This document shows, one piece after another, positions 3,279 to 59,825 of a stretch of DNA of 62,103 bases; the first letter of the stretch is position 1, and each line of letters begins with the position of its first letter. Source of the stretch: a virus (Duplodnaviria > Caudoviricetes). Position numbers and translations under genes: made by a program. The notes under the pieces are model-generated. The model did no database searches, was not told where the DNA came from, and was given only the letters and a program-made list of their open reading frames with translations. The stretch spans positions 1 through 62,103 of IMG/VR virus record IMGVR_UViG_3300034104_002314; one strand, 5' to 3'.

Positions 3279-5033
3279 ATGAAACCATTAAATTTAGATA
3301 ATAGACCGTGTAGCCCAATATCAAGTAATTGTGTGATATGGCAGGGTCCAGATATTCCATGCATTAAATTATGTACAGGAGACACTGTATCTGATGTAGT
3401 ATTTAAACTAGCTACAGAACTATGTACTATAATGGACACACTTAAAATTACAAACTATGATTTATCATGTTTTAATTTAACAGCTTGTCCACCGGATGAT
3501 TTTCAAAAACTTATCCAGTTAATAATAGACAAAGTTTGTGCACTTGAAAATATTAATAATTCTGAATCAACTTCTACAGGAACTCCAAGAAGTGCAAGAG
3601 CTACATGTCCTGATTGTGTTGTAACTGTTGCTCCACCATTTGTGATGGGTACACAAACTACCATGCAATTAGTAGAGTATGTGAATGCAATTGGTGATAA
3701 AATTACATCTATTATTAATGAGATTTTAAACTTGCAAGTTCAGATTGATGGTTTAAATATTAGAGTTACAACAATTGAAAGTACAGTTCCTCCAGTATAC
3801 ACATTACCAAGTATTAGTACAGGATGTTTGCAATCCTATATTGTTGGTAATCCGGCTACAGCAGGAATTGATATTGTATTGAATGCCTTATTAAATGATG
3901 CTAATGTTGGGTACTGTGCTCTTAAAGGTGCTACAGGAGAACCAGCTGAAATTTCAGCAGCAGTTCAATCTCAACTTTTATGTATTACTGATTTAACTCA
4001 ACCATTAGCAGCACTTCCTACTATAACAACATTTAGTGCTTACTATGCTGGAACATGGGTTCAAGATGGAGATTTAAGTACAGCTGCTAATGCAATAAAT
4101 AATATATGGATTACACTATGTGACCTTTATACTTATGTATCTAACTTTAATGTTAATATTAATGTTCAGGATACAAATACAGTTAACTTAACATTTTCTT
4201 CTGGAGTGTTATCAGCAGATGTGCAAGATACAGGTTGGGTTAAACTTGTTGGTTTTGATACTTACATGAATGATACAGCTGGAACACAATATGAATATCC
4301 ACAAGTAAGAAGAATAGGAAATCTTTTACACTTTAAAGGTAATGTTGTAGTTCCACTGGCTGAAACAACAAGTGCACTAAGACCATGGTTATATACCACT
4401 ACGGTTAATAACTATGAAGAAGATCCTTCTACGGGTAATGCTACAACAATTGTAACACCATATCAAGGAACAGGTGGTGTAATTCTTAATTCATTTGGTT
4501 CTATTCAATTTAATAGAAATGGAGCAGGTAATGCTGAGTCTGTTATACCCACTGCAGTAATTCCTGCAGGTTATCAATTAGATGGTGGATATTCACATCC
4601 TTCAGGTTTTGTTCATGCTAGACGTGATATAAAAATTGGTGCAAATACAAGCACTATGCTTTCATCATTATTTAGAGTTAGTATATCCCAGACAGGTATA
4701 CTAAGTTTTAGTTTAGTTAAAAATTCTGAGGAAAGTTTTATCAACACAAGTAATGATGCATTTGACACATCACATTTAAACTATATTATTTCACATGTAG
4801 TTTCTGGAGAAAGTGTTCCACAGTTTAAAACAGGAACTAACATTGTTCACTCATTAGCTGGTGGAGGAACTTCAGATTTAAATCTTGACTTTCCAGCAGC
4901 ATATACATACCCATTTACTTGTAATGCAAATGATGAAACTGAAGTTGGTGGGTTTGTTTTATCCATCACAGGACTATCTGCATTTATAAGTCCATGTGGT
5001 ACATTAATACCAACACCTACACCATGTCCTTAA
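3279..5033 (+). CDS. Putative tail fibre / fibre-hub protein
   Basis: 584 aa; N-terminal CVIWQGPDIPCIKLCTGDTV motif, a coiled coil, then QDTGWVKL...VRRIGNLLHFKG, typical of phage fibre beta-domains. Confidence 0.6.
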   Translation: MKPLNLDNRPCSPISSNCVIWQGPDIPCIKLCTGDTVSDVVFKLATELCTIMDTLKITNYDLSCFNLTACPPDDFQKLIQLIIDKVCALENINNSESTSTGTPRSARATCPDCVVTVAPPFVMGTQTTMQLVEYVNAIGDKITSIINEILNLQVQIDGLNIRVTTIESTVPPVYTLPSISTGCLQSYIVGNPATAGIDIVLNALLNDANVGYCALKGATGEPAEISAAVQSQLLCITDLTQPLAALPTITTFSAYYAGTWVQDGDLSTAANAINNIWITLCDLYTYVSNFNVNINVQDTNTVNLTFSSGVLSADVQDTGWVKLVGFDTYMNDTAGTQYEYPQVRRIGNLLHFKGNVVVPLAETTSALRPWLYTTTVNNYEEDPSTGNATTIVTPYQGTGGVILNSFGSIQFNRNGAGNAESVIPTAVIPAGYQLDGGYSHPSGFVHARRDIKIGANTSTMLSSLFRVSISQTGILSFSLVKNSEESFINTSNDAFDTSHLNYIISHVVSGESVPQFKTGTNIVHSLAGGGTSDLNLDFPAAYTYPFTCNANDETEVGGFVLSITGLSAFISPCGTLIPTPTPCP

Positions 5034-55979: not shown

Positions 55980-58234
55980 TTACTTGACAGCCATCTTCAC
56001 CACGTCCTGATTCATCATGAGCTGAGAAAACTTAACTTTGTTACCATTAACAATCTCTTTGACCATATAATATCTAAGGTCATCAGTGAATGCTTCACAG
56101 TCAGTAGTAAGTTTAGCTATCCTGTCAATGATTGGTTTACCTACTGAACCTTTGTCAGCTAAAGTAAGAGAATAGTTAATCACCCTGGTAGCAATAACAC
56201 TAGATATGTCAGCCCGGAAATCATCATCCTTGCCTACTGCATTGGTTAAGCTATTCATTACATACTGCTCATCTTTAGTCAGAATGTCTACTGGAGAAAT
56301 AATCCTATCTAGCTTATTATTAATAAACATAGTAAACATTGAACTAAAGTCTACACCAACAGAACCCTCACCAATCATTTGGATTAGAGGCAGGTCTGCT
56401 TCAAACTTCTCAATAGAACTAATAGCATTAAAGAAAGTAGTAATAGCTCTTGGATTAACTCTTTGAGTTACCAATTCTGGGTGCATCAACATGAAGTTAA
56501 TACATCTACCATCTATGTTTGCTTTCTCTGCCCACTTAGCCCATACATCAGAATCATACTTTAACTCAACAGAGATAAATCTAGTCTTCTGAGCAACATC
56601 TAGACTGGTTACATTATAATCACCATTGTCTGGATTAGTAGTCAAGATTACATGCCAGTTCTTTGGTAGCTTCCAAGATACATATTCTTGTCTGTCTAAT
56701 ATCTCCATGGTTGCTTGCATAAATCTTGCATCAGCTCTGGTATAATCATCAAGAATCAAGAAACCACCTTCACCTTTACCCTGAATCCATTCAGGAGCAG
56801 CATGTGACATTCTCTTTCCTACAACTTTATAACCTTTAGCACTTGCTGCAGATATTTGAGATTCATTAATCCATCTTGTCTGACCTTCAGCATTTGCAAT
56901 TTGAAATTCTTTTACAGGAAACCCAACCAAGTCACCCAATTCTTCTAACTGAGATAAATTAAGCTTTACAACTTCCATTTGCAATTCTTTACCCAACTGC
57001 ATGATTGCAGAAGTTTTACCACATTTTGTTATCACAAGGCTCTTTATCCTTGTTTCTATAGCTTTCACTATAGTTCAGACTATATCTTCACTATTTCTAG
57101 TGTTGGGCACTCTTGGGTATATTATATTCTATATTTCTATAGTTTCAATACCTAGTCGTTGAACCTTTCCAGACCATTTAAGTCTAGACTTGGCTGCTGA
57201 TTATCCATTAGGACATCTTTGTTATTTTCAAGCATTCACACTTACCGTTTCCAGTTATGTTGTAGCTAACAAAGCTTTAGGAACTCCCAGCAATTCACCC
57301 AATTTTTACCCTGGACCTGGGTAAAATGTATATCTTAAACCATCATAGTAATTACCTTTCTTAATTCTTATTGACATTGCAGAGTGACTAATGCCTAGAT
57401 TACTAGCTACATTAGAAACTCTTTGCCATTCTTGAACTAAAGTGTTGTTTTCATCAAATACATAAACTTTCTTTGTCTTATCTGGTTTAATAGAAGACTC
57501 CTCTAGTTTATCTTTCAATTCATAACTCCATCTATAATTCTTACAAGAAAAACCTTTTCCTGAAGCAACTCTTGAAACTTTACCTTTTGGTAGGTTTAAT
57601 TGTTTTTCTGCTTCAGCACAAGATTCATAAGATTTAAGGTAAAAACCATTTATGTTATACTGATGAACAGTTTTGGATATAGGATTCTTTATTCTTTTAG
57701 AAGCATAAGCTTCTTTTAATGTTGTAGAAATTTTAAGTAATGTTTCATTACTATGTATAACTGCAACAGGATCTTGAATAAAGTTCAAATCTGGAGTCAT
57801 AGACTGTATATAATAAGCTTCAGTTTTAACTAAAACTGCTTTACTACACTCTTCTATAACTTCAAACTCAAAACTATCCTTTCCATATTTATTAAAAGCA
57901 TTTTGCATATACTTGTTTGCATGTTTGTTTTTTAGCAAATCAGATATATGTCTTTTCAGCCTATAATAAATATTAATACTACTTCCAATATAACTGTGAT
58001 CATTACAAGTAATTCTGTAAATACCACACTTTTGGTTTAAGTCTTTGTGTAAACACTCTGAAATTAATTTCTTCATGTTACAAAGATATACATTTATTTT
58101 GAATTAAGCCCAGCATCACCCTCAATATTTACAGCTACAGGTACTTTACCTTCAGCTTGGATATGTTGGTTATTACTAACCATATGTTTAATAAAATCCT
58201 TTAACTCATTTACATTTAATTGTACTTGATTCAT
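55980..58234 (-). CDS. MoxR-like AAA+ ATPase, spliced: exon 1 58234-58107, exon 2 57021-55980 (389 aa)
   Basis: Joining GGG CT|T GGT AAA ACT restores Walker A GDAGLGKTS; Walker B LILDDY, sensor TTNP and Arg finger KTRF are present. Confidence 0.9.
57022..58106 (-). ncRNA. Group I self-splicing intron (1085 nt)
   Basis: Exon ends in U and intron ends in G; core elements P AATTGCTGGGA, Q AATCAGCAG, R GTTCAACGACTA, S AAGATATAGTC; guide GGUCCAG pairs with exon CUGGGCU. Confidence 0.93.
57306..58076 (-). CDS. Intron-encoded GIY-YIG homing endonuclease with NUMOD1-like repeats
   Basis: CGIYRIT...YIGSS...R...H; two C-terminal repeats (KTVHQYNING..., KKVYVFDENN...). Confidence 0.9.
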   Translation of the reverse strand: MKKLISECLHKDLNQKCGIYRITCNDHSYIGSSINIYYRLKRHISDLLKNKHANKYMQNAFNKYGKDSFEFEVIEECSKAVLVKTEAYYIQSMTPDLNFIQDPVAVIHSNETLLKISTTLKEAYASKRIKNPISKTVHQYNINGFYLKSYESCAEAEKQLNLPKGKVSRVASGKGFSCKNYRWSYELKDKLEESSIKPDKTKKVYVFDENNTLVQEWQRVSNVASNLGISHSAMSIRIKKGNYYDGLRYTFYPGPG

Positions 58235-58246
58235 AATCTTTAATTT

Positions 58247-59431
58247 TTATAATTCTAATTTAATAACTTTACCTGGTAACTCTGTATTCATATAAGACCT
58301 TTCTGACAAAACCCATAGAGTGTTACCTCTAGGTTTTACAGAATAACCACATTCACCGTCAGTAAAATACACCAGGCTTGTATATTTTTTAGTGTTGGCA
58401 TTAAAATATTCTAGGACAGGGTCAAACTCAGTTCCACCTCTACCTTGCACAGCCATTTCAAATTTACCTTTGTAAGGTTCAATAGATCTAATAACAGTAT
58501 CACATTGCACTACAGTAATATCCACACCACATTTATAGATGTGATATATCTCACTCATGAATTCTTGTAACTCAGAATCACTCACTGAACCTGAAGTATC
58601 AATAGCTAGCAACATATGCTGTCTCATTTTTACCTTCAGACCAGGATTAGCATCAAATCTGCGGTTCTCCTTTCTTCTAATTTTCTTAGTAAATACCTTA
58701 GTACTTACTCCTGTAAATCTTCTAATATACCCCCGCCAATTAAACTTAGGCTTGACAACTTCTTCAATGATAATTACCCCCTCAATCTCTCCAGGAACAG
58801 TACCCCTCTTCTTGATGGTTTGTTCTTTAGCATCACCAAGCACTTTTTGTAATTGTTTATCAATTAACTTCTGTTCTGCCTCAGTCATGTCTTCAAACTC
58901 TTCCCAGGTAGCATGTTCATCAAGTTCACCATTTGCCATAGCATCTAGTAACTGATCCATAGGTTCATTACCACAAGTACCATTCTTTTCTTTCTCATCT
59001 TGTAGATCCTTCAGTTTGTCATAATAATATCTACAACCAGCTTTTCTATCAAGATTAAGATCAGCATAATTATCTATATCAATACCACCTTCCGGTAGCC
59101 AGTCTTTAGATATATACTGATTAATCTCCATGTCCATTGCAACATTTGCAAGTCTCTTATTACTAAACTTAAAGAAAGTAGTAAGATGTCCAAATGCAAT
59201 ATGCAATAATTCATGTTTCAATAATCCAAGTCTGTGGTTATCACTAAGAGATTCCCAGAACTCAGGATTAATAGCAAGTTGATAATTAATATTATTCTTG
59301 CTTACACCTGCAGTTGGAACTCTTCTAGCATCCCAAACTTTGTTTAGAGCAATAAGAAAGAACCCATAGAAGGGCTCTTTCAGCATCAGCTCTTTACCAA
59401 TTTTACTAAGACTCTGTTGTCTGTCCATCAT
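58247..59431 (-). CDS. DUF2201-type metallopeptidase plus vWA domain protein (MoxR partner)
   Basis: LLKHELLH...NVAMDMEIN, MIDAS motif IDTSGS, GRGGTEF, YFTDGE; likely start MMDRQQ. Confidence 0.88.
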   Translation of the reverse strand: MMDRQQSLSKIGKELMLKEPFYGFFLIALNKVWDARRVPTAGVSKNNINYQLAINPEFWESLSDNHRLGLLKHELLHIAFGHLTTFFKFSNKRLANVAMDMEINQYISKDWLPEGGIDIDNYADLNLDRKAGCRYYYDKLKDLQDEKEKNGTCGNEPMDQLLDAMANGELDEHATWEEFEDMTEAEQKLIDKQLQKVLGDAKEQTIKKRGTVPGEIEGVIIIEEVVKPKFNWRGYIRRFTGVSTKVFTKKIRRKENRRFDANPGLKVKMRQHMLLAIDTSGSVSDSELQEFMSEIYHIYKCGVDITVVQCDTVIRSIEPYKGKFEMAVQGRGGTEFDPVLEYFNANTKKYTSLVYFTDGECGYSVKPRGNTLWVLSERSYMNTELPGKVIKLEL

Positions 59432-59825
59432 CTTTAAATTTAATATCAATTTCAAATTTATCTGTAGGATAGCCAATGGACTCTAACATCCTTGACATAT
59501 CTCTAATAAAGAATTCCATAAATAGCTCAACCGAAGCTTTGGAACCTCTGTGTTTTGTAATCAGACTTAGTGTTTTAGGACTACTAAGTGGTACTTCACT
59601 TACAAATGTATTTTGGAGCCTCATTGCTATTTTATTACAATTTGCTAACCAATTATCCATAGCATGTCCACCATACTTATAGAGAACTAATAGTTCTCCT
59701 ATATACTTCTCAAAATCAACATTCTTTAGAGACTCAAATGCTATAAGATGATTATCTGCATCTTCAGATTGTAACATCATAAGTAAATTCCTTGTTTCTT
59801 CTTTACTAAAAATCATTTTTGCCAT
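59406..59825 (-). CDS. Hypothetical helical protein
   Basis: 139 aa; shares an M.xS.D.DNH..A.E motif with the 444-aa ORF. Confidence 0.7.
   Translation of the reverse strand: MAKMIFSKEETRNLLMMLQSEDADNHLIAFESLKNVDFEKYIGELLVLYKYGGHAMDNWLANCNKIAMRLQNTFVSEVPLSSPKTLSLITKHRGSKASVELFMEFFIRDMSRMLESIGYPTDKFEIDIKFKDDGQTTES

Follow-up and report, generated by a model that had tools for sequence, protein, structure and literature searches.

The window, that is, the whole stretch of DNA analysed here, is a 62-kb virus record (IMG/VR IMGVR_UViG_3300034104_002314; 62,103 nucleotides; G+C 33.5%), and the DNA runs in which this stretch occurs are metagenomes from lake water. On its minus strand, on which all feature coordinates are read, lies a phage ATPase gene whose Walker A codons are split by a mobile group I intron carrying the open reading frame (ORF) of a homing endonuclease. 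We focused on 23 nucleotides (nt) at the end of this ORF, which an earlier note on this DNA had flagged as a hairpin, and they are the guide region of the intron. The features on which the analysis depends are the following.

58107..58234, minus strand: exon 1 of the phage ATPase gene, with its ATG at 58234 and its end reading ...GGU GAU GCU GGG CU; placed by end-to-end alignment with intron-less alleles.
57022..58106, minus strand: 1085-nt group I intron that begins at U58106 and has G57022 (omega-G) as its terminal nucleotide; Rfam RF00028.
55980..57021, minus strand: exon 2 of the ATPase gene; U57021 completes a Leu codon, which GGU AAA ACU (G-K-T) follows.
58094..58096, minus strand: stop codon UAA of the exon-1 frame, four codons into the intron and overlapping the first two P1a pairs (ORF 58094..58234).
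57306..58076, minus strand: GIY-YIG/NUMOD1 homing endonuclease ORF, 256 amino acids and 771 nt, filling the loop closed by P1a.
58106..58113, minus strand: 5' strand of helix P1, CUGGGCU^U (the caret marks the splice junction), made of the last seven exon nucleotides and the first intron nucleotide; eight pairs, 100% of cells paired.
57311..57318, minus strand: internal guide sequence AGGUCCAG, the 3' strand of P1, within the endonuclease codons P-G-P-G.
58083..58095, minus strand: 5' strand of helix P1a, AAAUGUAUAUCUU, ending 6 nt upstream of the endonuclease AUG.
57324..57336, minus strand: 3' strand of P1a, AAGAUAUACAUUU, in the codons L-R-Y-T-F.
57304..57326, minus strand: local hairpin of 8 base pairs (bp) with a 7-nt loop, an alternative to P1, to P10 and to the last three P1a pairs.
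57320..57326, minus strand: UUUUACC, the P10 guide and 5' arm of the hairpin, with 57326..57324 also in P1a; its partner is the exon-2 sequence GGUAAAA at 57020..57014.

The earlier note had assumed a group I intron here, and the RF00028 covariance model agrees, with a score of 76.7 bits against the cut-off of 50. The match covers the core at 57348..57056 (E 1e-17) with model positions 1-253 all matched, and it is the single Rfam match in the whole window. The host phage lineage is from lake water, and the exon-2 protein, used as the query in IMG/VR, had 569 related stretches; the analysis covered the best 80. In 78 of these 80 loci, all without the intron, exon 1 abuts exon 2 exactly at 58107/57021, which bears out the splice junction that had been claimed from the window alone. 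The intron carriers among the 80 were L006, identical over 1085 nt, and L031, around 92% identical. The exon side of the 5' splice site is U58107, which is paired to G57317, and the last intron nucleotide is G57022. Removal of the intron rebuilds GGU GAU GCU GGG CU^U GGU AAA ACU, that is, G-D-A-G-L-G-K-T, a Walker A motif. Furthermore, the full-length protein of an intron-less allele (L001) matches PHROG 1297 'ATPase' with an E of 3.3e-32; its Pfam matches, AAA_5 and AAA_3, are sub-threshold only.

The patchy distribution of the intron (2/80 of the best ATPase loci), together with exon codons that differ beside the junction, would fit homing. Most of the intron-less alleles read GGU UU^G GGU or GGU CU^U GGU at the junction and the intron-bearing ones read GGG CU^U GGU, and the combination GGGCU^UGGUAAAAC was found in only 1/78 intron-less loci. 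On these sequences, the difference looks like co-conversion of the flanking codons or a target polymorphism that affects homing.

After further scans, the set of intron copies comprised 29 contigs including the window. Both P1 strands are visible in 25 of them and exon 2 in 27, and the covariation alignment holds 22 copies, which make 15 distinct rows. We also used L164, a diverged sister lineage whose ATPase gene is more distant and has an intron at the same position (RF00028, 79.6 bits).

Regarding P1, GGUCCAG (57317..57311) pairs with the exon end CUGGGCU (58113..58107) at 7/7 positions, with U58107·G57317 at the splice site, and the guide lies 790 nt from the 5' splice site. A57318 pairs with the first intron nucleotide, U58106, and extends the helix. 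All 7/7 pairs are kept in 25/25 copies with both strands visible, in three exon/guide combinations: CUGGGCU/GGUCCAG (21 copies), CAGGGCU/GGUCCUG (2) and CGGGGCU/GGUUCCG (2). Thus, the pair at position -6 occurs as U-A, A-U and G-C (alignment pair 10-810: UA in 13 rows and AU in 2, with the G-C version in L146 and L141). At position -4 the pair G-C becomes G·U in L146 and L141, and at position -2 the C-G of the family is A-U in L164, where CUGGGAU pairs with GUUCCAG; this is a second compensated position. The variant CGGGGCU/GGUUCCG also alters the tail of the endonuclease from PGPG to PGSG. We consider the P1 assignment settled because exon and guide covary, and with it the claim that the guide lies in the last endonuclease codons and in the hairpin loop, forming P1 with a U·G pair at the splice site, stands on compensatory changes in the sister copies. 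Seven-nucleotide guide candidates are found anywhere in 442/2000 shuffled introns and in the 60-nt window ahead of P3 in 21/2000. The real intron has two such candidates, the other one (57175) being inside P6 and needing four G·U pairs.

Two other placements of P1 were rejected. The fold of minimum free energy (MFE) of the whole precursor chooses a register in which CUGGG pairs with CCCAG (57321..57317); in the copies A57318 is invariant while its would-be partner becomes A or G. Rfam's own placement of P1 (57344..57322) takes no account of the exon and has six positions marked as non-canonical. It can be observed that CCCAG and UCCAG within 57321..57311 form a near-repeat, so that the exon sequence CUGGG can pair in two registers, and that the register picked by the whole-precursor MFE is the non-productive one, without the U·G pair.

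P1 does not stand alone. The 58095..58083 strand forms 13 perfect Watson-Crick pairs with 57336..57324, and this helix, P1a, prolongs P1 past a small internal loop, so that an extended P1 has the endonuclease gene as its terminal loop. Along the RNA, P1 is followed by the internal loop, by P1a and by a loop of 746 nt. The earlier note had placed the endonuclease ORF in the loop of P1, which is borne out, but the description was incomplete because the 13-bp P1a that closes that loop had been overlooked. Only 1/2000 shuffles of the two 60-nt pieces matched the 13 P1a pairs. Unconstrained two-strand folding of the 5' and 3' pieces gives P1 plus P1a at -26.0 kcal/mol, and the fold of the full-length precursor also includes P1a. 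In the 22 aligned copies, 96.5% of the P1 and P1a cells are paired, versus 13.7 to 58.7% after a shift of the partner by 1 to 3 columns. The covariation score of P1 plus P1a is 0.076 versus 0.040 in shuffles, and 1/500 shuffles reached it. Within P1a the covariation is at two pairs, UA/AU at one and AU/GU/GC at the other, and in L164 the helix is AAUUUGUAU/AUACAAAUU, with compensated changes on both strands. P1a also competes with the outer three pairs of the flagged hairpin.

The ORF that fills this loop is 771 nt long; its last codons read ...F Y P G P G, and the stop codon UAA is at 57308..57306. Its product has the domains GIY-YIG (PF01541, 40.5 bits against a Pfam cut-off of 22.6) and NUMOD1 (PF07453, 32.8 bits against 22.8) and matches PHROG 314 'homing endonuclease' with an E of 2.2e-20. 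It is therefore a putative GIY-YIG homing endonuclease with a catalytic domain and a DNA-binding module, predicted to cleave the intron-less allele close to the insertion site. The ORF is intact in 22/22 complete copies.

The endonuclease frame runs across the 3' strand of P1a, the P10 guide and the guide sequence, and it stops in the A-rich joiner, 4 nt before P3. A single stretch of RNA is at once protein-coding sequence, guide for the splice site and guide for the 3' exon. Regarding variability, 252/738 columns vary in the body of the ORF and 6/38 in the last columns of the ORF region, which hold the P1a 3' strand, the guide and the joiner, whereas the two parts of the core have 22/164 and 4/110. 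The endonuclease tail appears to evolve like RNA structure and not like the ORF body, because its last 38 columns vary less than the body does (Fisher p = 0.02). The L164 ORF reaches only the first nucleotide of the guide: it stops at a UAG, and the G of this codon pairs with the splice-site U. Among the protein relatives, the tails read ...KYEFF, ...YQVPG (protein clusters P0026, P0027 and P0030) or ...PG[PS]G. The arrangement fits 'core creep', in which the end of the ORF feeds helices needed for splicing, with an extension whose length varies among relatives.

Regarding the flagged hairpin, the earlier note had described a perfect 8-bp stem over the codons for YPGPG and the stop, and this is what the window copy has: UUUUACCC (57326..57319), the loop AGGUCCA (57318..57312) and GGGUAAAA (57311..57304). 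By topology the hairpin is also exclusive with P10 and with part of P1, as had been claimed. Its energy alone is -8.6 kcal/mol, which corresponds to z = -0.61, and 49/200 shuffles were at least as stable. All 8 pairs are present in 9/29 copies; in the other 20 the sequence is UUUAACCC, leaving an A·A mismatch without compensation. In the alignment, the pair U57323-A57307 is broken in 10/15 distinct rows, and no covariation within the family was found in the hairpin stem over these 15 rows. The predicted local stability over the 29 copies is -8.6 kcal/mol in 9, -4.8 in 16, -5.5 in 2 and -8.1 in 2.

A similar pattern was found for P10. The 7-bp P10 (57326..57320 with 57020..57014) has 7/7 pairs in the window, as had been claimed, but it is complete in only 9 of the 27 copies with exon 2 visible; another 9 have 6/7 pairs, and the remaining 9 have 5/7, with two adjacent mismatches. 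In this register L164 forms six pairs, including two wobbles. No covariation of the 7-bp P10 was found within the family. A shorter pairing, of A57318, C57319 and C57320 with the exon-2 UGG, is contiguous with P1; its 3/3 pairs are possible in 27/27 copies, and it is invariant. Over these copies, the perfect hairpin and the 7-bp P10 belong to a minority subclade. In the window copy the hairpin is a genuine alternative fold, although most probably a by-product, because its 5' arm must match the exon-2 sequence GGUAAAA, which resembles the GG at the end of the guide followed by the UAAAA of the joiner.

The explanation that we consider likely as a whole is an intron whose endonuclease ORF lies in an extended P1 and overlaps the guide, with a hairpin that is mostly a by-product. 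Several observations weigh against it. Regarding P1a, 13/13 pairs are found in 10 copies, 12/13 in 12 and 11/13 in 3 (n=25); pair 32-793 is unpaired in 4/15 distinct rows and pair 37-788 in 5/15; and the covariation of P1 and P1a rests on few independent substitutions in closely related copies. Regarding the hairpin, the guide of L031 and L083 is covered by another hairpin, of 6 bp (ACCCAG/CUGGGU), at -8.1 kcal/mol. L164 forms UUUAUCU-AGUUCCA-GGAUAAA, with 7 pairs, the same loop size of 7 nt and one compensated pair, C57321-G57309 to U-A, although a pattern scan for further members of its lineage returned only L164's own contig, so that this comparison between lineages is of one sequence. In the window precursor, the hairpin folds lie 2 to 5 kcal/mol below the P1 folds (-287.6 vs -285.6 and -282.2), and the full-length centroid fold contains P1a plus a 5-bp local hairpin. 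Finally, the ligated exons of the intron-bearing allele were not seen in the four riverine metatranscriptome runs whose Logan contigs served as RNA evidence.

The hairpin observations would suit the reading proposed in the earlier note, in which the hairpin is a selected switch that hides the guide and the P10 guide until ribosomes terminating on the ORF melt it or block P1, timing the splicing of the ATPase. The exclusion of P1 and P10, the hairpin of L164, the other guide-sequestering hairpin of L031 and L083 and the window energies all point this way, as does the fact that the paired C57321 and G57309 are third-codon positions invariant in 22/22 aligned copies. However, we consider a selected switch unlikely, although the L164 copy leaves it a small probability. 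The A·A mismatch is left uncompensated in 20/29 copies, with a predicted local stability of -4.8 kcal/mol in 16, -5.5 in 2 and, from the different 6-bp hairpin, -8.1 in 2; the stem does not covary within the family, and its stability is within the range of the shuffles. Stem positions drift, the codon 57323..57321, which holds two of them, being Y, N, I, T or D across protein clusters. The invariance of third positions in the tail is not significant (3/10 variable vs 124/246 in the body, binomial p = 0.17). The energies of L085 favour the P1 fold over the hairpin fold (-294.5 vs -289.5). Furthermore, the clash of a ribosome with P1 and P3 is independent of the hairpin. Therefore, the regulatory part of the earlier proposal, splicing coupled to translation through the hairpin, is not supported by the variation among copies. 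We did not use whole-precursor energies as an arbiter between P1 and the hairpin, since the values are a few kcal/mol apart and the answers differ between copies. A comparable competition is known from Tetrahymena pre-rRNA, where an alternative hairpin, P(-1), competes with P1 and modulates self-splicing; P(-1) is made of 5' exon sequence, whereas the window hairpin would be made of the guide side.

A by-product hairpin still leaves translation and splicing in conflict. A ribosome covers roughly 30 nt of mRNA, and we took this span for the estimate: with the UAA 57308..57306 in its A site, it would span about 57326..57296, that is, the P10 guide, the guide sequence and the P3 5' strand (57302..57296), and while reading 57336..57306 it would also have to open P1a. 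Translation of the endonuclease tail and splicing would thus be mutually exclusive on each transcript, hairpin or not, because the ribosome covers the guide and the 5' strand of P3. At the other end of the ORF, a folded P1a would bury positions -19 to -7 upstream of the endonuclease AUG. None of the minus-strand ORFs of at least 120 amino acids in the window (0/14) has a Shine-Dalgarno-like 4-mer at positions -20 to -5, and their leaders are A/U-rich. Because the ORFs of the window lack such motifs, initiation probably needs an open leader, and P1-P1a would hold the translation of the endonuclease down. Re-initiation might be possible from the exon-1 frame stop 58096..58094, which lies on the first P1a pairs, 18 nt upstream of the endonuclease AUG.

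These elements (P1a, P1 and the local hairpin) could also be put together into a device with three states that would set the sequence of events on each transcript; we regard this as a speculative extension and consider it unlikely. P1a would be unformed during transcription, the endonuclease start would be open and the first ribosome would translate the ORF, perhaps by re-initiation. Termination on the guide would then strip the hairpin and hand the guide to the 5' exon, held close by P1a, after which the folded P1-P1a would stop further translation of the endonuclease. If this were true, each transcript would give a small dose of endonuclease first and splicing of the ATPase afterwards.

The remaining features belong to the ribozyme core, where the helix coordinates from P3 to P9 were set by inspection.

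57303..57310, minus strand: joiner GGUAAAAA between P1 and P3, holding the endonuclease stop UAA; the counterpart of the A-rich J2/3 in relatives with P2.
57022..57302, minus strand: ribozyme core from P3 to P9, from the Rfam alignment with helices by inspection.
57302..57296 with 57109..57103, minus strand: P3, by inspection.
Within the core, minus strand: P4, P5, P6 and P6a, by inspection.
57157..57153 with 57082..57078, minus strand: P7, by inspection.
57152..57116, minus strand: P7.1/P7.2 insert of 37 nt, between P7 and the 3' strand of P3 and closed by GGUAU/AUACC; an insertion in the Rfam alignment, with the helix by inspection.
57102..57089, minus strand: P8, by inspection.
57073..57056, minus strand: P9, by inspection.
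57052..57035, minus strand: a further hairpin, by inspection.

The core is IA-type (IA2-like), with a P7.1/P7.2 insert and without P2, and compensated changes are seen in the alignment in P6a (C57187-G57169 to G-C) and in P8. Between the guide and P3 there are only 8 nt (57310..57303), and the P2 positions of Rfam are deleted in the window copy. Related phage introns in IMG/VR have the same P3-P4 sequence and an A-rich joiner before P3, as the window intron has, but they keep P2. In these relatives the order is the guide, a P2 hairpin with a GNRA loop and then UAAAAAUU-GGGUG.

Since the P2 of these relatives is a hairpin of 7 to 8 bp directly 5' of UAAAAAUU-GGGUG, similar in stem length to the flagged one, the latter might be taken for the P2 of the window intron, with the guide located elsewhere. 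We find this very improbable: the loop covaries with the 5' exon at two positions, in four exon/guide combinations; the sole other 7-nt guide candidate is inside P6 and has four G·U pairs; the P2 of the relatives follows the guide and has GNRA loops, but in the flagged hairpin the joiner itself makes up the 3' arm; and the P2 positions of the Rfam model are deleted in the window copy.

Regarding activity in nature, one 980-nt metatranscriptome contig (run X15, depth 6.9) joins G57022 to 58091, which is intron nucleotide 16; a second contig completes the circle, which is the intron without its first 15 nt. The cut of the circle follows U58092, inside the 5' strand of P1a, and the circle copy carries a 110-nt insert at 57131/57140. 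The G57022-58091 junction was not found in any of the 288 DNA sequences compared. Group I introns circularise via attack by the terminal G, and this junction, from one contig of one run, hints at an active ribozyme in nature. Two other kinds of contig were set aside. Exon-exon contigs (57020 to 58110, with 4 letters between) are no proof of splicing, as they come from the common intron-less allele at around 88% identity, and intron-containing RNA contigs that end short of both exons (58067, 58073, 57052 to 57086) were not counted as evidence.

That the intron is a decaying relic which no longer splices, with pairings left over, would fit the ligated exons missing from the four runs and the P1a mismatches in 15/25 copies, but it is hardly credible given the compensated changes in P1, P1a, P6a and P8, a ribozyme more conserved than its ORF (22/164 and 4/110 vs 252/738 variable columns), an endonuclease ORF intact in 22/22 copies, a conserved ATPase that is split within Walker A and would be dead without splicing, and the circle junction in the RNA library.

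The overlap pattern has precedents. 'Core creep' is the name given to the overlap of ORF and core by Edgell, Chalamcharla and Belfort (PMC3073962), and the passages of that article on the T4 td intron describe an I-TevI ORF that overlaps P6a/P7 by 20 nt, a hairpin concealing the ribosome-binding site of this ORF, and defective splicing of an intron occupied by ribosomes. As far as those passages go, td and the window intron are alike in three respects (PMC3073962): the 3' end of a GIY-YIG endonuclease supplies nucleotides of the splicing helices, an in-frame stop lies just inside the intron, and RNA structure, which in td sequesters the ribosome-binding site of the endonuclease, would cover the start region in the window intron. 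On the same account they differ in location, since the td ORF is in the loop of P6 and overlaps P6a, P6.0 and P7, whereas the window ORF is in the loop of P1 and overlaps the guide itself; furthermore, unlike td, the window intron has neither P2 nor a Shine-Dalgarno motif.

Two introns with an ORF in P1 appear in Table 1 of the same article. In the tRNA-fMet intron of Synechocystis PCC 6803, the row gives a PD-(D/E)-XK endonuclease ORF in P1 with a 61-nt P1/P2 overlap (PMC3073962). As far as a table row permits comparison, this intron shares the insertion site and the class of overlap with the window intron but has another endonuclease family and lies in a bacterial tRNA gene instead of a phage protein-coding gene. 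The row for the large-subunit ribosomal DNA intron of Physarum polycephalum gives a His-Cys box endonuclease ORF in P1 with an overlap of 0 nt (PMC3073962); by that row it shares the P1 location and differs in being in nuclear ribosomal DNA, in its endonuclease family and in its route of expression. Among the papers listed, our literature search found no case of a phage GIY-YIG ORF in P1, and since subscription journals were outside its coverage this absence is unproven.

Both the ORF-core overlap and the splicing defect caused by ribosomes are already in print, so the window intron joins a documented class and brings no new principle. It documents a phage group I intron without P2 in which a long-range helix holds the endonuclease gene in an extended P1, and field variants in which the tail of the protein shifts (PGPG to PGSG) so that P1 stays paired. 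Furthermore, the copies form a natural allelic series, with perfect and mismatched hairpins and three guide variants, that suits the study of how translation of an intron ORF and folding of the ribozyme affect each other.

Regarding the related introns with HNH ORFs, those in L188, L180, L215 and L216 end from 6 nt before P3 to 6 nt inside P3, with tails such as ...CPKCHFARHH. Thus, ORF ends that adjoin the core are frequent in this intron family. By inspection, the 5' splice region of L188 apparently forms a local P1 upstream of the ORF, unlike in the window intron. Of 7 HNH-bearing relatives taken for duplex prediction, 4 yielded an ORF and 3 did not, and the predictions were uninterpretable without mapped splice sites. 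In the related phage contigs L129 (738-845, 6555-6674 and 13898-13958) and L122 (3362-3481 and 9191-9298), stretches 72 to 86% identical to parts of the core suggest that each of these genomes has more than one such group I intron, related to one another.

The gene upstream of the ATPase (58250..59476, minus strand) matches PHROG 1314 'HNH endonuclease' with an E of 3.7e-66. By Pfam, its protein has a DUF2201 metallopeptidase-like N-terminal domain and a VWA-like domain, and the PHROG name looks misleading.

Finally, the P7.1/P7.2 loop of L031 holds an insert of 137 nt at 3753-3881 (around window position 57135), and the Rfam tRNA model scores it at 33.7 bits (cut-off 29). The insert has 73 extra nucleotides in the anticodon region and a fold z of -2.83, and ARAGORN called no tRNA on it. 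Unrelated inserts of 66 to 133 nt were observed at the same P7.1/P7.2 loop in L083, in L154 and in L085/L087/L092.

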